From Desulfobulbales bacterium (GTDB lineage Bacteria; Desulfobacterota; Desulfobulbia; Desulfobulbales; Desulfobulbaceae): 64,000 nucleotides of DNA. The notes beneath the pieces are model-generated. The model saw only the letters and a list, made by a program, of their open reading frames with translations. It was not told the origin of the DNA and made no database searches. Position numbers and translations under genes: made by a program. The DNA is taken from the NCBI GenBank assembly GCA_038318785.1, contig JBBQCO010000003.1, forward strand, positions 1,761 through 65,760, read 5' to 3'. Position 1 is the stretch's first letter; the number at the start of each line of letters is the position of its first letter. Below, piece after piece: positions 14,033-23,353 of the stretch.

Positions 14033-14548
14033 ATGCTTATTCGGTTCAATGAAGTCTCTGCTCTTGGCAGTCGGTACGAGATTCGGGAGGTTGACGGGCT
14101 CAACGCTTCACGAGATTTTGTGGTGAAAGGTCCTGTGGATGCGCGTTGCGCGCTCAATCGAAAGGGCGACCACAAGGTGGAAGTGCAAGGCCATTTACAG
14201 GCCACCTTGACTCTGACTTGTGATCGTTGTCTTTCTGTGTATGACTGGGAGGTCGATACCGAATTGCAGATCCTGTTCGAGGTCGAAACCGAGGCTTCCC
14301 GGCATTTAAAAGATTTGGAGTACAACATACCGGATCTGGATACGGTCTCCCTTGAGGAGCCGATCATCGATCTTGACGATGTTTTACGGCAGCAGTTATA
14401 CTTAGCGCTTCCCATGAAATCCCTCTGCACAGAACACTGCCGAGGAATCTGTTCCCGGTGCGGAGCAAATCTAAATCATGCAGAATGCGGATGTGCCGAC
14501 GAAAACAAGGAGTCGCCTTTCGCGGTCCTTGCCCAATTGAAAAAATAA
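14033..14548 (+). CDS. yceD: YceD/DUF177 protein
   Basis: CDRCL, LALPMKSLC...CRGICSRCGANLN, SPFAVL; upstream of rpmF. Confidence 0.9.
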   Translation: MLIRFNEVSALGSRYEIREVDGLNASRDFVVKGPVDARCALNRKGDHKVEVQGHLQATLTLTCDRCLSVYDWEVDTELQILFEVETEASRHLKDLEYNIPDLDTVSLEEPIIDLDDVLRQQLYLALPMKSLCTEHCRGICSRCGANLNHAECGCADENKESPFAVLAQLKK

Positions 14549-14621: not shown

Positions 14622-14810
14622 ATGGCTTTACCGAAACGTAGACATTCCTATTCACGGACAAGACTCCGTCGGGCACACGATTTCTTGACCAAGCCGAACG
14701 TCGGCCAGTGTCCTGAATGTGGTGAACCGAAAATGCCCCACCAGTTGTGCAGCGGCTGCGGTATGTATAAAGGCCGGAGTGTTATCCGTCTTGAGGAAGA
14801 ACTGAACTAG
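14622..14810 (+). CDS. rpmF: 50S ribosomal protein L32
   Basis: MALPKRRHS, CPEC...PHQLC..CG.Y. Confidence 0.97.
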   Translation: MALPKRRHSYSRTRLRRAHDFLTKPNVGQCPECGEPKMPHQLCSGCGMYKGRSVIRLEEELN

Positions 14811-14818
14811 GCACTGTT

Positions 14819-15829
14819 GTGAGGATAGCCCTTGACGCCATGGGTGGCGACGGGGGGTCAGAGATGGCGATCCGAGGCGCTCTTGCCGCGGTTCGAGACC
14901 GGAGTGATCTGCGTGTCATCTTGGTGGGCCCTCGTATTCTTTTAGAACAACAAATCGCTGACAATTCGTCTGGTTACGACAATGTGTTGGAGCGAATTAG
15001 CGTTCATCACGCCTCCGAAGTCATCACCATGGACGATTCGCCGGTAGATGCTGTCCGCAAAAAGAAAGAAGCCACCATCATGGTTGGCTTTGATTTGGTG
15101 AAAAACGGTGAAGCAGATGCGGTGGTTTCAGCCGGCAACTCCGGCGCCACCATGGCTGCGGCGATCAGGAAACTCGGCAGACTGCCGGGTGTTTCCCGTC
15201 CGGGCCTCGCTAGTTTTTTCCCAACGGTGAAAAAGCCGGTGATGTTGATGGATATCGGGGCCAATGTCGATTGTCGGCCACAGCATCTCTACCAGTTTGC
15301 GGTCATGGCTTCTTCCTGTTCCCGTCTGCTGCTCAACTATGACCGTCCCCGCATCGGTTTGCTCAGTATAGGCGAAGAGACTGGTAAGGGAAACGCACTG
15401 GTTAAGGAAACCTATGATCTTCTGAAGCAGAGTCCGCTCAATTTCATCGGTAATGTTGAAGGGCGTGATGTGTATAAGGGAGATGTAGACGTCATTGTTT
15501 GCGACGGCTTTGTCGGCAACATTTCCTTGAAAATAAGCGAAGGGCTGGCCGAAGCAGCCATGCAGATGCTCAAACGGGAGATCCTGAAAACCTGGCGCGC
15601 CAAACTCGGTTATCTCCTTATGCGCGACGCCGTAGCCGGATTTAAAAAACAGGTGGATTACGCCGAATACGGCGGTGCCCCCTTGCTGGGTATCGACGGT
15701 ACCGGTATCATTTGCCACGGCGCCTCTAACGCCGTTGCTATTCGTAATGCCATTGAAGTTGCAGCGAACATGGTGCGCAACCGGATCAATGAGGCAATAG
15801 TTCAGGCGCTTGGCGAAAACGCCGCCTGA
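14819..15829 (+). CDS. plsX: Phosphate acyltransferase
   Basis: IALDAMGGD, SAGNSGA, DGFVGN, GGAPLLG. Confidence 0.96.
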   Translation: MRIALDAMGGDGGSEMAIRGALAAVRDRSDLRVILVGPRILLEQQIADNSSGYDNVLERISVHHASEVITMDDSPVDAVRKKKEATIMVGFDLVKNGEADAVVSAGNSGATMAAAIRKLGRLPGVSRPGLASFFPTVKKPVMLMDIGANVDCRPQHLYQFAVMASSCSRLLLNYDRPRIGLLSIGEETGKGNALVKETYDLLKQSPLNFIGNVEGRDVYKGDVDVIVCDGFVGNISLKISEGLAEAAMQMLKREILKTWRAKLGYLLMRDAVAGFKKQVDYAEYGGAPLLGIDGTGIICHGASNAVAIRNAIEVAANMVRNRINEAIVQALGENAA

Positions 15830-15843
15830 AAACAGGTTTCTTC

Positions 15844-16821
15844 ATGACAAAAGCTGTTATTCTCGGAACCGGATCCTGTCTTCCGGAGCGAATACTTACC
15901 AATGCCGATCTTGAGCAGATGGTCGAAACCTCTGACGAATGGATCACCTCAAGGACCGGAATCCGCAACCGGCGGATCGCCGGCAAGAATGAACAAAATT
16001 ACCAATTGGCGACCAGGGCCGCTCGTCGAGCCCTTGCGGTCACAGGCGTTGATGCCGAAGAGCTGGATCTGATCATTGTCGCCACTATTTCGTCCCACAT
16101 GATCATGCCGTCCACGGCATGTTTTGTGCAAGCCGAGCTCGGTGCGGTGAATGCCTTTGCCTATGATATCAATGCTGCTTGTGCTGGATTCACTTACGGA
16201 CTGGATCTAGCCAGTAACTATATCCAAAACCGCCCGGACATGAAAATTCTGCTGATCGGTGCGGAAACACTCTCTGCGCGAGTCAACTGGGAAGACCGGA
16301 ACACCTGCGTGCTGTTTGGCGATGGTGCGGGCGCGGTTATTCTTACGGGCTCTAATGACGGTAGAGGCGTCTTTGGCAGTAGCCTGCACGCCGATGGAAA
16401 ACTGTGGAATTTGCTGTGTATGGACAGTCCGGAAAGCCTGAACCCGGAATTGCGGCGAGACGACTGGCAGGGCGCTCACATCCGGATGAATGGTGTTGAT
16501 ATCTTCAAACATGCTGTTCGGTTGATGGAAGACGCTGTTACCAGCCTGCTCAGGAAACATGACCTCACTATTGACGATATTGGCCTGATGATTCCTCATC
16601 AGGCCAATATTCGCATCCTCAAAAATCTGAAAGAAAGACTGGGATTGCCCGAGGATAAAATTTTTATCAATCTCAGTCAATATGGCAATACTTCTGCAGC
16701 CAGTATTCCGATAGCCTTAGACGAAGCGCATCGGCTGGGACGGTTGGTGCGGGGAGATATTGTGCTTTTATGTACCTTTGGCGGCGGCCTCACCTGGGGC
16801 TCTCTGCTTATGCGTTGGTAA
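15844..16821 (+). CDS. fabH: 3-oxoacyl-ACP synthase III
   Basis: AACAGF, PHQAN, GNTSAAS catalytic triad motifs. Confidence 0.96.
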   Translation: MTKAVILGTGSCLPERILTNADLEQMVETSDEWITSRTGIRNRRIAGKNEQNYQLATRAARRALAVTGVDAEELDLIIVATISSHMIMPSTACFVQAELGAVNAFAYDINAACAGFTYGLDLASNYIQNRPDMKILLIGAETLSARVNWEDRNTCVLFGDGAGAVILTGSNDGRGVFGSSLHADGKLWNLLCMDSPESLNPELRRDDWQGAHIRMNGVDIFKHAVRLMEDAVTSLLRKHDLTIDDIGLMIPHQANIRILKNLKERLGLPEDKIFINLSQYGNTSAASIPIALDEAHRLGRLVRGDIVLLCTFGGGLTWGSLLMRW

Positions 16822-16840
16822 GACACTAAGGAGTGTATTT

Positions 16841-17989
16841 GTGGATTATTTTTTCACTGAACAGCAACAGATGATCATCGATACCGCCCGGGAAATCACC
16901 AATGAAAAGATTATTCCGGTACGGGCGGAACTTGATGAGAAAAACCAATTCCCTCGGGAAATCCTGCATGACATCGCCAAGGCCGATCTTTTTAGTGTGT
17001 TTGTTCCCGAAGAATACGGTGGATTTGGCGGTGGCTGCTTCGAAGTTGTCTTGGCCCTGGAAGAATTGGCCCGTGGATGCGTCGGCGTGGCCACCAGTTT
17101 TGCCGCCAGCGCCTTGGGTATTTTTCCGGTAATGATAGCCGGCAGCGAGGCGCAGAAACAAAAATACCTACCCGACATCGCCAGTGGTGCGCGTTGGGCC
17201 GCCTTTGGTCTTACCGAGTCCAACGCGGGGAGCGATGCTTCGGGCATACGGACCACCGCTGTCGAAGATGGTGAAGAATGGGTGCTCAATGGCACCAAAC
17301 AATGGATCACCAACGGCGGCGAATCTCAGATTTACACAATCATTGCTCTCACCGATCCCAACAAAGGGGCGCGTGGGGCCTCCATTTTTGTAGTTGAGGA
17401 GGGCGATCCCGGTTTTTCTTACGGCAAAAAAGAAGATAAAATGGGTATCCGCTCCTCTGCAACCCGGGAACTGATTCTCAAGGATTGCCGGATACCTAAA
17501 GATCGGCTGGTCGGCAGAAAAGGTACTGGTTTTATCACTGTGATGAAAACCTTGGATATGTCGCGTCCAGGTATTGCCTCCCTCGGTATCGGTCTTGCCC
17601 AAGCTGCTTTGGACGAGGCAGTTGTCTACGCTAAACAGCGAGTCCAATTCGGCAAGCCGATTATTTCTTTCCAGGCCGTGCAGCACATCCTGGCTGATAT
17701 GGCCATACAACTTGAAGCCGGTCGAGCTTTGGTTTATGGCGCGGCAAAGCACATTGATGCGCACCCTAAGGACATGTCCAAGGTTTCGTCAATGTGTAAG
17801 GTTTTTGCTACCGATATGGCCATGAAGGTTACCACCGATGCAGTGCAGGTCCTAGGCGGTTACGGGTACATGAAAGAGTATCCGGTGGAGAAGATGATGC
17901 GTGACGCCAAGATTCTCCAGATTTACGAAGGCACCAACCAGATCCAGCGCAATGTCATTGGCCAGGAACTGAACAAAGAATACTCCTGA
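16841..17989 (+). CDS. Acyl-CoA dehydrogenase (butyryl/caffeyl-CoA reductase type)
   Basis: AAGGAG RBS + GTG at 16841; FGLTESNAGSD, KQWITNG, RVQFGKPI, QIYEGTNQIQR. Confidence 0.93.
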   Translation: MDYFFTEQQQMIIDTAREITNEKIIPVRAELDEKNQFPREILHDIAKADLFSVFVPEEYGGFGGGCFEVVLALEELARGCVGVATSFAASALGIFPVMIAGSEAQKQKYLPDIASGARWAAFGLTESNAGSDASGIRTTAVEDGEEWVLNGTKQWITNGGESQIYTIIALTDPNKGARGASIFVVEEGDPGFSYGKKEDKMGIRSSATRELILKDCRIPKDRLVGRKGTGFITVMKTLDMSRPGIASLGIGLAQAALDEAVVYAKQRVQFGKPIISFQAVQHILADMAIQLEAGRALVYGAAKHIDAHPKDMSKVSSMCKVFATDMAMKVTTDAVQVLGGYGYMKEYPVEKMMRDAKILQIYEGTNQIQRNVIGQELNKEYS

Positions 17990-18003
17990 GAGATTCACGG
18001 GTC

Positions 18004-18783
18004 ATGAAGATTATTGTCTGCGTCAAACAGGTCCCGGACGCCAAGGATGTCCGGCTTGATCCCAAAACCAATACCTTGGCGCGTGAAGGGGTGGATGCGA
18101 TCATGAACCCCTATGATCGCCATGCCCTGGAAGAAGCGGTCGCCATCAAGGAAAAGCAGGGCGGCACGGTAACAGTGATTACCATGGGACCGCCGCAGGC
18201 CGAGACGGTGCTCCGCGAGGCCATTGCCTGTGGAGCCGATGATGGGGTGTTGATTTCTGATCGAGCCTTTGCCGGGGCTGATACCTGGGCTACTGCTTAT
18301 ACCCTGGCTAAGGCTGTGCAAACGCTCGGCGGCGCCGACCTCATTCTCTGCGGCAAGCAGGCAATCGATGGTGATACTGCCCAAGTCGGTCCTGGGTTAG
18401 CTTGCCGTTTACAGGTGCCGTACGCCACCTGCGTCCAGAAAACACGCAACGTAACCGCTACTACTATTGAAGTGGAGCGGATGATGGACGACGGTTTTGA
18501 TGTTCTCCGATTGCCTCTACCTGCTTTGATTACGGTGGTCAAAGATATCAACGAGCCCCGGGTCGCGTCGTTAAAAGGTAAGATGAAGGCAAAAAAAGCA
18601 GCAATTCGACAACTCTCCGCCGCTGCTATTGGTGCTGATCCGCAGTGCATCGGATTAGCCGGATCGCCGACGCAAGTCGTGCGTGTCTTTCCCCCGGAAC
18701 CTCGGGGAAACCGGAAAATATTCTCGGGAAGCGTCGAGGAGCAGGTCGAGCAGCTGGTTGCCTGTCTCAAGGCACATCTCTAG
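18004..18783 (+). CDS. etfB: Electron transfer flavoprotein beta subunit
   Basis: CVKQVPD, NPYD, AGADT, GKQAIDGDTAQVGP. Confidence 0.95.
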   Translation: MKIIVCVKQVPDAKDVRLDPKTNTLAREGVDAIMNPYDRHALEEAVAIKEKQGGTVTVITMGPPQAETVLREAIACGADDGVLISDRAFAGADTWATAYTLAKAVQTLGGADLILCGKQAIDGDTAQVGPGLACRLQVPYATCVQKTRNVTATTIEVERMMDDGFDVLRLPLPALITVVKDINEPRVASLKGKMKAKKAAIRQLSAAAIGADPQCIGLAGSPTQVVRVFPPEPRGNRKIFSGSVEEQVEQLVACLKAHL

Positions 18784-18822
18784 GCAAAGAAGAGCTTCAC
18801 CTTTACAATCGAGTTTTTTTCT

Positions 18823-20013
18823 ATGCTGATTATCGATAGTGAGAAATGTACGGCCTGCGGCATCTGCGAGACCAGTTGCGCCTTCGGGGCCATCAGCGTC
18901 GTGGCGGATTGTGCGGTGGTCACCGAATCCTGCACACTCTGCGGTGCTTGTGTTGACCATTGTCCGGTCGGCGCCCTTCGTATTGAAATTGCCGATAAAC
19001 GTACACAGGCCGACATCGGTGAGTATGTGGGGATTATGGTGTTTGCAGAGTATCGCCACGGTAAGGTCGCGCCCGTGAGTTATGAGTTGTTGGGCATCGG
19101 CCGCAAACTTGCTGATAAGCGCGGTGTCAAACTCAGCGTGGTGTTACCCGGTGGTGCAGTGGCCGCCTATGCGGGCGACCTCATTGCTGCCGGCGCCGAT
19201 ACCGTTTTCCTTGCCGAACACCCGGTGCTGGAGCAGTTTCGCGAGGACGTGTATGCCAGGGTCTTGGAGCAGGTGATCCGGGAGCAGAAGCCCGAGGTGG
19301 TTCTTGCCGGGGCAACCGCCATCGGCCGGTCGGTCATTCCTTTTGTAGCCACCGCCATCGACGCTGGTTTGACCGCTGATTGCACTCACCTGGAAATCAG
19401 GGAAGAGGACGGCATGTTGCTGCAGACGCGACCCGCCTTTGGCGGCAATATCATGGCGACCATCGAATGCCCGCACACCCGGCCACAGATGGCCACTGTC
19501 CGACCAAAGGTTATGGCACCTGCTGAACCCGATCCTTCCCGCAAAGGTGAAGTTATTTCGGTGCAGCTGCCGCAACATCTTGTGCAGTCCAAGATTGAAG
19601 TGCTTGAAACAGTGATCAACACCGAAGATCAAGTCAATATTCAGGAAGTGGAAACCCTGGTCGCAGGTGGCCGTGGCCTTGATTCGCCCAAGGGGTTTGC
19701 GTTGATCCGGGAACTGGCCTCTGAACTCGGTGGTGCGGTGGCCGCATCACGGGCCGCCGTCGATTCCGGTTGGATTCCCTATCCGCATCAGGTCGGCCAG
19801 ACGGGCAAGACAGTTAGCCCCAAGCTCTACATAGCCTGCGGAATATCCGGCGCCGTGCAACATGCAGTGGGCATGCAGTCCGCTGAAATTGTGGTCGCCA
19901 TTAATCGTGACAAGAGTGCGCCTATTTTTGATATCGCCACCTATGGCGTGGTTGGAGATCTGTATGAGGTGGTGCCTCAGTTGATTAAACGGCTTCAGGA
20001 GATCAAAAAATGA
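18823..20013 (+). CDS. etfA: Electron transfer flavoprotein alpha subunit with N-terminal 2x[4Fe-4S] domain
   Basis: CTACGICETSC and CTLCGACVDHC; GLTADCT, RPAFGGN, QVGQTG, GISGAVQH. Confidence 0.95.
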   Translation: MLIIDSEKCTACGICETSCAFGAISVVADCAVVTESCTLCGACVDHCPVGALRIEIADKRTQADIGEYVGIMVFAEYRHGKVAPVSYELLGIGRKLADKRGVKLSVVLPGGAVAAYAGDLIAAGADTVFLAEHPVLEQFREDVYARVLEQVIREQKPEVVLAGATAIGRSVIPFVATAIDAGLTADCTHLEIREEDGMLLQTRPAFGGNIMATIECPHTRPQMATVRPKVMAPAEPDPSRKGEVISVQLPQHLVQSKIEVLETVINTEDQVNIQEVETLVAGGRGLDSPKGFALIRELASELGGAVAASRAAVDSGWIPYPHQVGQTGKTVSPKLYIACGISGAVQHAVGMQSAEIVVAINRDKSAPIFDIATYGVVGDLYEVVPQLIKRLQEIKK

Positions 20014-20759
20014 TGCTGGAGAAGATGATTGCCGTGGTCACCGGCGGCAGCCGCGGCATCGGGCGGGCAATCTGTGTGAAACTGGCTTCCATGGGTGCCA
20101 TCGTCGGTATTAATTATGTATCCAATCCGGCGGCAGCCGAAGAAACCTTGAAACAGATTGAGGCCCTAGGGGGCAAAGGGTTTACGGTCCGTTTTGATGT
20201 TGCCGATGGCGAAGCGGTCCATGAAAATTTCAAAGAAATTATTGCTACCCATGGCCAAATTGACATTCTCATCAACAATGCCGGCATCACCCGCGATGGC
20301 TTGATGGCGCGCATGAAAGAGGATGACTGGGACAGCGTGCTTGATACCAATCTGAAAGGTGCGTTTCTCTGCAGCAAGGCAGTGATGCGGACCATGATGA
20401 AAAAAAGGTGGGGTCGGATCATCAACGTCTCGTCGGTGGTTGGTTTTGTCGGCAACAGTGGCCAGGTTAATTATGGTGCGGCCAAAGCTGGTTTGACCGG
20501 TTTGACCAAATCCATGGCGAGGGAGCTAGCCGGACGGAACATCACCGTCAACTGCGTTGCTCCCGGATATATCGTCACCGACATGACGGACGGCCTTACC
20601 GAAGATGTTCAGGAAGCGCTCAAGGCCCAAATACCTCTGGGCATCTTGGGGACACCAGAAGATGTTGCCGCTTCAGTGGGTTTCCTGGCATCAACTGACA
20701 GTAATTACGTTACCGGTCAGACCCTGCACGTCAATGGCGGGATGTATATGGGACATTGA
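20010..20759 (+). CDS. fabG: 3-oxoacyl-ACP reductase
   Basis: TGGSRGIG, NNAGITRD, YGAAK. Confidence 0.96.
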   Translation: MMLEKMIAVVTGGSRGIGRAICVKLASMGAIVGINYVSNPAAAEETLKQIEALGGKGFTVRFDVADGEAVHENFKEIIATHGQIDILINNAGITRDGLMARMKEDDWDSVLDTNLKGAFLCSKAVMRTMMKKRWGRIINVSSVVGFVGNSGQVNYGAAKAGLTGLTKSMARELAGRNITVNCVAPGYIVTDMTDGLTEDVQEALKAQIPLGILGTPEDVAASVGFLASTDSNYVTGQTLHVNGGMYMGH

Positions 20760-20784
20760 CAAGAGATACCCGAATGTCTACTCT
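20756..20784 (+). promoter_or_regulatory. Internal sigma-70 promoter for acpP overlapping the fabG stop
   Basis: TTGACA-17bp-TACTCT. Confidence 0.6.
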
Positions 20785-20839
20785 TTCGGGCATTGTTTTA
20801 TGACAGAACAATCACAAGACTATTTTGAGGAGAATAACA

Positions 20840-21073
20840 ATGGCTGTTGAAGATAAAATGATTGATATCATCGTCGAGCAACTGAGTGTCGACCGCGACA
20901 AAGTCGTTCCAGGCGCTTCCTTTGTCGACGATCTTGGTGCTGATTCACTGGACTTGGTCGAGCTGATCATGGCTATGGAAGAGGAATTTGATGTCGAAAT
21001 TCCTGACGAAGAGGCTGAGAAGATCGTAACGGTGCAAAACGCCATCGATTTTGTCTCCAAAATTCAAAACTGA
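20840..21073 (+). CDS. acpP: Acyl carrier protein
   Basis: [12 protein letters not shown]; GAGGAG RBS. Confidence 0.97.
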
Positions 21074-21089
21074 GTCGAGGCTTGTAAGC

Positions 21090-22328
21090 GTGAAACGACG
21101 GGTCGTTGTAACAGGGATTGGCTTGGTTACACCGCTAGGTATTGGGACCGAGCAGACGTGGAATGCTCTGATCAACGGACAAAGCGGCATCGGACCGATC
21201 ACCCGCTTTGATGCCTCTGATCAGGCTTCGCAGATTGCTGCCGAGGTAAAAGGTTTTAATCCTGAGGACTGGTTTGAAAAAAAGCAGGTGAAAAATCTGG
21301 ACCCCTTTGTGCAATACGCGGTTGCAGCAGCAGACATAGCCTGGAAAAGCAGCGGCCTGTCGATTACCGATGACAATGTCAATAGAGTTGGGGTTATAAC
21401 CGGTTGTGGTATGGGCGGCCTCCCCACCATTGAAGAGTATCATGGCGTTCTGGTGAATAAGGGGCCGCGCAAAATCACGCCGTTTTTCATACCCAGGGTT
21501 ATACCTAACATGCCCTCTGGCCATATTTCCATGCGGATAGGCTGCAAGGGGCCCAATCTTTCCCAGACGACTGCCTGTGCGGCCGGAACCCACGCAGTGG
21601 GCGAAGCCTTTCGTCATATTGTTTATGGCGATTGCGACGTGGCCATAACCGGCGGCACCGAATCGGTTATCTGTCCGCTGGCTGTGGGTGGATTCAGTGC
21701 GATGAAAGCCCTCTCGACGCGAAATGACGATCCGACTGCTGCCTCCAGACCCTTTGATCGCGATCGGGATGGGTTCGTCATTTCCGAGGGGTCAGGCATG
21801 TTGGTTCTGGAGGAATTGGAGTCAGCTAAACGGCGTGGAGCCACCATTTATGCCGAGATTATCGGTTACGGTCAGACCAGCGATGCTTACCATATAGCCG
21901 CTCCACCCGAAGATGGTGAAGGCGCTGCCCGCTGCATGGCCGCAGCCTTGCGGGATGCGGGACTTAATCCCGAAAATATCGATTATATCAACGCCCACGG
22001 CACCTCGACTCCGCTCAATGATAAATGCGAGACTCTGGCCATCAAAACCGTTTTTGGTTCGCATGCCAACAAGTTAGCTGTCAGTTCCACCAAATCGATG
22101 ACCGGTCACATGTTGGGTGCAGCTGGAGGGATTGAGGCGGCATTCACTGCCTTGAGCCTGTATCATGGCATCCTTCCGCCCACTGCCAATCTGCAGAACC
22201 CGGATCCTGATTGTGACTTGGATTACGTACCTCTAACAGCCCGGGAGGTACGGATTGAAACAGCCATGTCGAACTCCTTTGGATTCGGTGGTACCAATGG
22301 GGTAGTTGTCTTCCGGCGGTTTAAATAA
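21090..22328 (+). CDS. fabF: 3-oxoacyl-ACP synthase II
   Basis: [35 protein letters not shown]. Confidence 0.96.
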
Positions 22329-22351: not shown

Positions 22352-22777
22352 TTGAATGTTGCATTGGGGTGTGACCATGGCGGATTTGCTCTTAAACGAG
22401 AGCTGATCCACTTACTTGAACAATCCAGCCATACGATCATTGATCTAGGATGCTATTCCGAGGAATCGGTGGATTATCCTGATTTCGCCGACAAAGTCTG
22501 TGCGGCAATCAAGGATGGGCGCTGTTCACATGGTATCCTTATCTGCGGGACAGGTATCGGTATGTCGATAGCCGCCAACCGGCACCGGTACATTCGGGCA
22601 GCACTTTGCCATGAGGCCTTTTCCGCCAGAATGAGCCGGGAGCATAACGACGCCAACGTCCTCTGCCTTGGTGCCCGAGTAATAGGGAGTGCCATTGCTT
22701 TGGATATCGTCAAGGTCTGGCTCGAAACCAAGTTTGCCGGCGGTCGTCATCTGCGAAGGATTAGTATGATGGGGTAG
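22352..22777 (+). CDS. rpiB: Ribose-5-phosphate isomerase B
   Basis: GCDHGG, DYPD, CGTGIG, HNDAN, GGRH. Confidence 0.95.
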   Translation: MNVALGCDHGGFALKRELIHLLEQSSHTIIDLGCYSEESVDYPDFADKVCAAIKDGRCSHGILICGTGIGMSIAANRHRYIRAALCHEAFSARMSREHNDANVLCLGARVIGSAIALDIVKVWLETKFAGGRHLRRISMMG

Positions 22778-22804
22778 TCGGTTGACACCTGTTCTGAGTC
22801 TTCC

Positions 22805-22842
22805 AAACCGGTATGCTTTTGCACAAAGCTGCCGGTTTTTTT
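22805..22842 (+). terminator. Rho-independent terminator
   Basis: AAACCGGTA...TGCCGGTTTTTTT hairpin with T tail. Confidence 0.6.
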
Positions 22843-22888
22843 GTGTAAAGATTTTAACCTCTTTTTTGAAATTATTTCAGGGTGTGCC

Positions 22889-23353
22889 ATGAAATGTCCC
22901 TATTGTGGTCATTTAGATAGTCGGGTGATTGATTCACGGATCAATAAAGACAAGACCATCACCCGGCGTCGACGGGAGTGTGATTCCTGCCAACGCAGAT
23001 TCACCACCTATGAACGCATTGAGTTGACGTTGCCGATGCTGATAAAAAAAGACGGCAGACGAGAACCTTGGGATCGAGGAAAAATCATCGTTGGACTGGA
23101 AAAGGCCTGCGAAAAACTGGCGGTCAGCATGACCGACATTGATCTCTTTGTCGATGCTATCGAGCAGAAATTACAGGACTATGGCGGCAAGGAAATTCCC
23201 ACCAGTCAAATAGGGGAATGGGTGATGGAGGCATTGCCTGCGTTGGATGAGGTGGCCTATGTTCGCTTTGCTTCAGTCTACCGACAGTTCAGGGATGTCA
23301 ATGAGTTTATGAACGAACTGAAATTCTTCCTTGGCGAAAAAGGAAAACACTGA
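22889..23353 (+). CDS. nrdR: Transcriptional repressor NrdR
   Basis: [30 protein letters not shown]. Confidence 0.96.

Follow-up and report, generated by a model that had tools for sequence, protein, structure and literature searches.

An acyl-CoA dehydrogenase-Etf module in the fatty acid synthesis operon of Desulfobulbales as a candidate enoyl-ACP reductase

Introduction

In bacterial type II fatty acid synthesis (FAS II) each elongation cycle is pulled forward by the enoyl-ACP reductase (ENR; ACP, acyl carrier protein), which is a classic antibiotic target. To our knowledge four or five structural classes of ENR exist, none of which is built from an acyl-CoA dehydrogenase (ACAD) and an electron-transferring flavoprotein (Etf), and none of which conserves energy. 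Here, a stretch of 64,000 nucleotides of a Desulfobulbales bacterium (GCA_038318785.1, contig JBBQCO010000003.1, positions 1,761 to 65,760; hereafter the window) is described, in which the genes of an acyl-CoA dehydrogenase (acd) and of both Etf subunits (etfB and etfA) lie within a FAS II operon. This raises the question which function such a module fulfills among the genes of fatty acid synthesis. A 2022 review of the ENR classes makes no mention of acyl-CoA dehydrogenase, Etf, ferredoxin or bifurcation, and no description of an Etf-dependent ENR was found in a full-text literature search.

The analysis points to Acd as the catalytic subunit of an Etf-dependent ENR of FAS II, a reading in which we place about even confidence. 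It is put forward because the module is strictly linked to the fab genes and strongly conserved, has no CoA context, occurs in several lineages in which no other known ENR is found, and decayed in a lineage that gained FabI. The ACP-bound substrate, the reductive direction and the reduction of ferredoxin are what we infer, and the bifurcating, ferredoxin-reducing version of this reading is less certain and put forward only tentatively. Acyl-CoA dehydrogenase, bifurcating Etf and ferredoxin domain are each known; new are the FAS II context and the proposed ACP substrate.

The Acd-Etf module and its relatives

The proteins of the window were assigned by Pfam and NCBIfam profile scans using the NCBI curated cut-offs. 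The module consists of the following features:

16841..17989, + strand: acd, acyl-thioester dehydrogenase/reductase resembling butyryl-CoA dehydrogenase (Bcd), 382 amino acids (aa), with three ACAD Pfam domains
18004..18783, + strand: etfB, small Etf subunit, bifurcating type by similarity (PF01012)
18823..20013, + strand: etfA, large Etf subunit (ETF, ETF_alpha and two Fer4 matches)
about 18823-19020, + strand: N-terminal 2x[4Fe-4S] ferredoxin domain of EtfA (two Fer4 motifs, residues 1-60)

The true start of acd is the GTG at 16841, which is preceded by an AAGGAG site. Acd carries the catalytic IYEGT motif, present as I[YF]EGT in 118 of 120 orthologues. Its best matches in the PDB are the Bcds 5OL2_C of C. 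difficile (389 bits), 4L1F and 1BUC, which together span 349-389 bits and are followed by CarC with 321 bits. EtfB matches best to CarD (6FAH_B, 245 bits), and EtfA aligns over its full length, ferredoxin domain included, with CarE (6FAH_A, 428 bits); toward Bcd-type Etfs both subunits score 216-291 bits. The top matches of both are all bifurcating Etfs, and non-bifurcating ETFs reach less than half of their score. For EtfB, five bifurcating Etfs gave 215-245 bits, as opposed to 97-105 bits for the human and Paracoccus ETF. Furthermore, 94 of 97 EtfB orthologues carry the motif DGDTAQVGP, and 86 of 92 EtfA orthologues the ferredoxin domain with its two CxxCxxCxxxC motifs. Taking these motifs and scores as a proxy, EtfB is predicted to be of the type that binds a second flavin adenine dinucleotide (FAD) and NADH rather than AMP.

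By family, as judged from sequence, the module is an enoyl-thioester reductase of the CarCDE/Bcd-EtfAB type. The likeness to bifurcating Bcd/Etf and CarCDE proposed in the initial annotation is therefore borne out, with EtfA resembling CarE over its full length and EtfB resembling CarD; the 2x[4Fe-4S] domain at the N-terminus of EtfA and the EtfB sequence GKQAIDGDTAQVGP are likewise both present. With CarCDE, the caffeyl-CoA reductase-Etf complex of Acetobacterium woodii (6FAH), the module shares the three-subunit layout, the CarE-type ferredoxin domain and the expected chemistry, an NADH-driven reduction of an enoyl-thioester. In contrast, CarCDE serves caffeate respiration on a CoA ester, whereas the module described here lies inside a FAS II operon beside acpP, and its Acd is nearer to Bcd than to CarC. 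With the Bcd-EtfAB complexes (C. difficile 5OL2; A. fermentans 4KPU and 4L1F; M. elsdenii 1BUC) it shares the catalytic Glu motif and DGDTAQVGP, but Bcd-type EtfA is devoid of the ferredoxin domain. In butyrate clusters, Bcd genes are accompanied by crt, hbd and thl, whereas no hbd was found in most of the genomes carrying the module.

None of the three proteins reached an NCBIfam equivalog cut-off. The models of the acryloyl-CoA reductase AcrABC of Clostridium propionicum (NF042970-2) are the top-scoring ones with Acd and EtfA and rank second with EtfB; nevertheless, none of the three comes near its equivalog cut-off, with 432 of 640 bits for AcrC, 240 of 475 for AcrB and 348 of 600 for AcrA. 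AcrABC functions in the acrylate pathway and does not bifurcate electrons.

Linkage to the FAS II operon and conservation

To judge how widely this arrangement occurs, 121 Desulfobulbales genomes (an even draw, at least 90% complete), 401 genomes of the phylum Desulfobacterota and 38 genomes of one class of Nitrospirota were used. The order plsX-fabH-acd-etfB-etfA-fabG-acpP-fabF was shared by all 20 relatives fetched, which represent 16 families of the order Desulfobulbales, and by about 50 named loci of this order, including those of cable bacteria. An Acd orthologue, 71-97% identical, is exactly single-copy in 119 of the 121 genomes. Within the phylum, it was found as a single copy in 186 of 401 genomes with an all-or-none distribution by family, and in all 20 further Desulfobacterota families sampled acd follows immediately after plsX(-fabH) in the fab operon.

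In Nitrospirota the operon reads plsX-fabH-acd-etfB-etfA-fabD-fabG-acpP-fabF. Acd was scored as present in 35 of the 38 genomes; of the other three, two are cut by contig ends and one (G154) carries a broken copy. This arrangement is far beyond chance and recurs in every relative examined. The conserved synteny with FAS II called for in the initial annotation was found from the order over the phylum to a second one.

The median identity of Acd is 77% toward other families of the order, 67% toward other Desulfobacterota families and 66% toward Nitrospirota. At all three distances this conservation is level with that of AcpP and above that of FabF, FabG, FabH and PlsX, and no other enzyme of the operon is as strongly conserved. 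In a phylogenetic tree the fab-linked Acds form one tight clade, which is distant from the paralogues.

The linkage also clarifies the position of the module. The initial annotation had placed it in the fabD slot, which is suitable as a description only. Nitrospirota and several Desulfobacterota families keep fabD in the operon and have acd(-etfBA) between fabH and fabD, and since these operons read fabH-acd-etfB-etfA-fabD-fabG, the module is an insertion upstream of fabD and no substitute for it. In Firmicutes clusters, fabK occupies this position between fabH and fabD.

Apparent replacement by FabI in one genus

Two genomes of the order, G040 and G121, are the only ones without Acd; they belong to one genus and are 99-100% complete. 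They are also the only two of the 121 genomes with a true FabI, which scores 285-293 bits (E. coli FabI: 292.6 bits on the same model), and both are without FabL. In G040 the junction is clean, as fabG follows directly after fabH. In G121, 1.2 kb between fabH and fabG hold a decayed etfB/etfA (L137:9969-11121 (-)), while acd is gone. Here, residues 1-143 of EtfB can be recognized with 34% identity, and residues 63-166 and 260-393 of EtfA with 39-45% identity, without the ferredoxin domain; for intact etf genes from the order's other families, the identity is about 58-71%. Since G121 keeps these remnants at the old site, the ancestor had the module, which then decayed in the lineage that gained FabI. 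This is suggestive of a replacement of the module by FabI in this genus.

The broken acd of the Nitrospirota genome G154 was considered as a second replacement. It shows a deletion of about 53 nucleotides and a frameshift, by which query residues 141-164 are missing (L148:12704-13895 (-)), in an otherwise intact fab operon; this may be a real loss or an assembly artefact. G154 has the best TIGR03151 match of its class (258 bits). This 'FabK' protein is nearest to P. aeruginosa PA1024 (383 bits), which we take to be an NADH:quinone reductase, as compared to 187-195 bits toward FabK, and the case was dropped.

Is the module an acyl-CoA enzyme?

The rival explanation that survives best, though we consider it unlikely, is that of a true acyl-CoA enzyme (Bcd/Etf, acryloyl-CoA reductase or a similar enoyl-CoA reductase), which is merely co-regulated with FAS II. 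It might supply butyryl-, propionyl- or valeryl-CoA as primers for FabH or balance the acyl-CoA for PlsX/PlsY. Desulfobulbus makes odd-chain fatty acids, which counts for this explanation, as does the position of acd behind fabH, the sole FAS II enzyme that takes CoA primers. The best matches of Acd, butyryl-CoA dehydrogenases and CarC, and the nearest NCBIfam models, the three clostridial acryloyl-CoA reductase subunits (below cut-off), speak for it as well. Similar genes, a Bcd near EtfAB in Margulisbacteria and Saganbacteria, have been read as Bcd/EtfAB (Matheus Carnevali et al., 2019; PMC6349859).

On the contrary, a CoA pathway around the module is not apparent. All neighbors at the locus are FAS II genes, and no gene of a CoA pathway was found among them. 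A 3HCDH_N domain was detected in only 24 of the 121 Desulfobulbales genomes, leaving 97 without a detected 3-hydroxyacyl-CoA dehydrogenase and therefore without a CoA pathway for Acd to serve. In Desulfobulbus, this dehydrogenase adjoins a different Acd, which is 50% identical to the fab-linked one. The fab-linked acd is therefore not the gene for a Bcd in butyrate metabolism or beta-oxidation, and the supply of acyl-CoA primers, the alternative in the initial annotation, is weakened because the 3-hydroxyacyl-CoA dehydrogenase is rare and located beside the paralogue. Furthermore, many acd operons have no adjoining fabH, the module is retained in genomes of 1.5-2 Mb and in organisms of very different lifestyles, and its loss coincides with the gain of FabI, which is unrelated to primers.

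Distribution of other enoyl-ACP reductases

The window belongs to a Desulfobulbus metagenome-assembled genome (MAG) of 3.49 Mb in 222 contigs, which is 85% complete. In this MAG, seven short-chain dehydrogenases/reductases (SDRs) were counted in all, and no FabI, FabL or FabV was found; a 'FabK-like' gene reaches 180 bits at a cut-off of 453. For FabV (PF12241), no match was obtained in the source MAG, in Desulfobulbales or in the 38 Nitrospirota genomes, but the control genomes were silent as well, so that this does not show its absence.

Within Nitrospirota, none of the 38 genomes holds FabI, FabL or a FabI-like protein, and matches of the FabK type or to nitronate monooxygenase (NMO) of at least 190 bits were seen in only three, which leaves enoyl reduction in this class without a candidate other than Acd-Etf. 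In ten Desulfobulbales genomes, one of them the closed genome G045, no ENR candidate of the SDR type was found, and four closed Acd-bearing genomes of other Desulfobacterota families hold neither FabI nor FabL. FabL has been lost in at least six Desulfobulbales groups. Acd without FabL occurs in 23 of the 121 genomes, FabL without Acd in none. In the one case examined, fabL stands alone between a peptidase gene and maf.

D. propionicus has both FabL and a FabI-like gene. A divergent FabI-like SDR is present in Desulfobulbus and lies, in the one case examined, within a secondary-lipid cluster. This cluster (genome G018, L128:864-9297 (+)) comprises genes for an amine-oxidase-like flavoprotein and an acyltransferase_3, and also for FabG-like and FabA-like proteins, the divergent FabI-like SDR, an OleA-like ketoacyl synthase III, an alpha/beta hydrolase and an AMP-ligase.

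The known ENRs FabI, FabL and FabV (SDR) and FabK (TIM barrel with flavin mononucleotide) have no homology to Acd, which has the ACAD fold. The module nevertheless fills the position between fabH and fabD, was apparently supplanted by FabI in one genus, and enoyl reduction is the only FAS II activity without an assigned gene in lineages that are without the known ENRs. In contrast to these, and with an unrelated fold and cofactors, it combines an ACAD with an Etf and would hold three FADs and two Fe-S clusters in three subunits, and it may use ferredoxin as a second acceptor.

FabX-type proteins and the remaining alternatives

The 'FabK-like' gene of the source genome is located on contig C82:3148-4125 (-) (L003:1477-2454) and adjoins pcnB. 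Its product scores equally well to FabK structures and to H. pylori FabX. Its residues C257, C261, C265 and C270 (CX3CX3CX4C) align one to one with the [4Fe-4S] ligands of FabX, while the alignment with FabK is gapped there. FabX-type genes were found in 111 of the 121 Desulfobulbales genomes, and no FabA was found in the order. In 37 of the 38 Nitrospirota genomes, a 373-aa NMO protein is a full-length FabX orthologue with 227 bits to 7E1Q (for example, genome G141, L152:5025-6128 (+)). Descriptions of FabX usually present it as rare and limited to Helicobacter and Campylobacter. In FabX, the [4Fe-4S] domain stands where FabK has its NAD(P)H motif, and the H. pylori enzyme serves the synthesis of unsaturated fatty acids as a decanoyl-ACP dehydrogenase/isomerase (PMC8626469). 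Because the cysteines match the FabX ligands and the order is without FabA, the 'FabK-like' gene is probably an unsaturated-fatty-acid enzyme of the FabX type and not an ENR. This identity would suggest how FabA-less anaerobes make unsaturated fatty acids.

FabX and the module have in common that they are non-SDR flavoenzymes of FAS II, acting in the case of FabX (and presumptively of Acd) on the C2-C3 bond of acyl-ACP, and FabX-type genes co-occur with the module. In contrast, FabX (7E1Q) has the NMO fold, consists of a single subunit, works oxidatively for unsaturated fatty acids and is not homologous to Acd.

An NMO-type enoyl-reductase domain was also seen in a different context. On contig C5 of the source genome (24677-32674 (-)), an open reading frame (ORF) of 2667 aa resembles polyketide synthases (PKS) or polyunsaturated fatty acid (PUFA) synthases and includes an acyltransferase domain in addition to this one. 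Similar giant PKS/PUFA-synthase-like ORFs are present in several relatives (G083, G135 and G030).

Two further explanations keep the module in FAS II and assign to it another role. In the first, Acd would be oxidative on acyl-ACP, like FabX or MbtN, and introduce a trans-2 double bond while the Etf takes the electrons. Desulfobulbus makes monounsaturated acids anaerobically, and the lack of FabA from the order would leave room for such an enzyme. ACAD-fold enzymes that act on carrier-protein thioesters exist, but the corresponding models score far below their cut-offs for Acd (MbtN 75 of 700, PigA 227 of 500 and RedW 250 of 650 bits). A function other than that of an ENR would also fit the absence of any Acd loss among FabL-bearing genomes and the persistence of Acd alongside FabI in genome G183. 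However, FabX-type genes already occur in nearly all genomes of the order and of the Nitrospirota class, and they stayed intact in G040 after the loss of Acd-Etf. Moreover, by established thermodynamics an NADH-linked bifurcating Etf drives enoyl-thioester reduction, and the reverse is strongly uphill, which makes an oxidative Acd quite improbable.

The weakest explanation, in which the FabX-type [4Fe-4S] flavoprotein with a low-potential donor is the missing ENR and Acd-Etf has another FAS-linked redox role such as electron supply or removal, draws on the near-universal presence of FabX-type genes in lineages without FabI, FabL and FabV, on a FabX-type gene that shares an operon with acd-etfBA (L099), on the internal TAG in the G121 copy after the gain of FabI and on the FabX reaction being the reverse of that of an ENR, but is highly improbable given that the gene was not found in 10 of the 121 genomes, several of them 99-100% complete and all ten keeping Acd-Etf, that it is intact in G040 while acd-etfBA is deleted and that H. 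pylori FabX acts as a dehydrogenase beside FabI (PMC8626469).

Observations that weigh against an ENR function

Several observations speak against Acd-Etf as an ENR. By sequence, Acd is an ordinary Bcd-like protein, as its 389 bits toward the C. difficile Bcd illustrate, and no ACP-specific feature was identified in it. A complex prediction of the Acd dimer with AcpP returned a score of 0.00 in a run without controls, which has no bearing either way.

A second group of observations concerns redundancy. FabL is above the NCBI equivalog cut-off in 94-96 of the 121 Desulfobulbales genomes; in most of the order, therefore, the cycle can be closed without the module. A mere second ENR would be expected to be lost at times, but no loss of Acd occurred in FabL-bearing lineages, and its retention beside FabL could equally mean another function that is not redundant. 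In G183, an intact fab-linked Acd coexists with a FabI that exceeds the cut-off at 415 bits. The operons of the G183 clade read plsX-(fabH)-acd-fabD-fabG-acpP-fabF and have no etfBA nearby; such Etf-less operons (loci L154, L156, L157, L162, L163 and L115) form one Desulfobacterota clade on the tree. Five Acd-less genomes of the phylum are also without FabI and FabL, and at the level of the phylum no simple pattern of complementarity between Acd and FabI was found.

In addition, the FabI replacement is a single evolutionary event, and in G154 no replacement ENR was identified. In principle, FabX-type Fe-S flavoproteins could catalyze the reverse reaction and thereby act as the missing reductase.

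Taken by lineage, the proposal that the module stands in place of FabI has held in part. No known or canonical ENR was found elsewhere in the 85%-complete source MAG, and the expectation that genomes with this arrangement are without fabI, fabK, fabL and fabV agrees with the searches in the Nitrospirota class and in the ten Desulfobulbales genomes, for FabV without a responding control. It does not agree with FabL in most of the order and with the coexistence of FabI and Acd in G183.

Proposed mechanism and significance

For Bcd-EtfAB and CarCDE, both NADH-dependent enoyl-thioester reductases, the bifurcation mechanism is established. Carried over by analogy to ACP substrates, the Etf-dependent ENR proposed here would operate as follows. 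NADH would reduce the FAD of EtfB, from which one electron would pass via the mobile FAD of EtfA to the FAD of Acd. The other electron would be transferred, perhaps via the two [4Fe-4S] clusters of EtfA, to ferredoxin. After two such rounds, trans-2-enoyl-ACP would be reduced to acyl-ACP at the FAD of Acd. Two ENRs coexist in many bacteria, and in lineages bearing FabL or FabI, Acd-Etf would be one of two parallel ENRs. That Acd-EtfAB is the bifurcating main ENR of FAS II in about half of the Desulfobacterota, including cable bacteria, and in anaerobic Nitrospirota is conceivable, although on balance doubtful.

The fab-linked module is probably an undescribed enzyme that carries out the final reduction in lipid building, and possibly an energy-saving one. 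If the reading as an ENR is true, Acd represents a new structural class, which should be insensitive to triclosan, and an annotation gap would be filled for many anaerobes without a findable ENR. Furthermore, the pool of low-potential ferredoxin could then be supplied from anabolic lipid synthesis, a point of importance for sulfate reducers under energy limitation, for cable bacteria and for syntrophs. If the enzyme is bifurcating, two NADH would be oxidized and one reduced ferredoxin delivered per elongation cycle, by which energy that FabI-type enzymes dissipate would be recovered.

Operon layout, expression and neighboring genes

In the window, the operon reads yceD-rpmF-plsX-fabH-acd-etfB-etfA-fabG-acpP-fabF-rpiB-nrdR, with all genes on the + strand. 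The gaps are 19 nucleotides between fabH and acd, 14 between acd and etfB and 39 between etfB and etfA, and etfA and fabG share an ATGA; reading of the sequence confirmed the gene order, the gaps and the overlap given in the initial annotation.

A scan for promoters and terminators of the operon gave counts equal to chance. In three studies, close relatives are represented by metatranscriptome contigs that cover the operon and extend over the junctions plsX/fabH, fabH/acd, acd/etfB and fabG/acpP/fabF; at etfB/etfA and etfA/fabG, no listed piece spans the junction with 31 letters on each side. This is a weak hint that the operon is expressed as one unit, as such contigs can neither prove a single transcript nor exclude a carry-over of DNA.

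The genes surrounding the module are the following:

14033..14548, + strand: ORF at the head of the operon, presumably of the yceD/DUF177 family (named without a profile scan); nearly all related loci have an orthologue upstream of plsX
14622..14810, + strand: 62-aa ORF with the N-terminus MALPKRRHS, which we take by recognition, without a profile scan, to be rpmF (ribosomal protein L32)
14819..15829, + strand: plsX, phosphate acyltransferase (TIGR00182, 371.9 bits, cut-off 243)
15844..16821, + strand: fabH, beta-ketoacyl-ACP synthase III (NF006829, 421 bits, and TIGR00747, 393 bits, both above cut-off)
20010..20759, + strand: fabG, 3-oxoacyl-ACP reductase (TIGR01830, 336.7 bits, cut-off 297.75)
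20840..21073, + strand: acpP, acyl carrier protein, 77 aa (TIGR00517, 104.9 bits, cut-off 70)
about 21093..22328, + strand: fabF, beta-ketoacyl-ACP synthase II (TIGR03150, 654 bits, cut-off 494)
22352..23353, + strand: rpiB and nrdR, downstream neighbors (TIGR01120 and TIGR00244, above cut-off), conserved in related loci

The true start of acpP is the ATG at 20840, and the DSL motif is present. The Pfam and NCBIfam scans found no fabD, no fabZ and no known enoyl reductase in the cluster of the window, in agreement with the absence of fabD, fabI/K/V and fabZ noted in the initial annotation. The fabD of the source genome is located on contig C11 between lspA and ffh and scores 260.0 bits against a cut-off of 260.9, and fabZ is located on contig C203.

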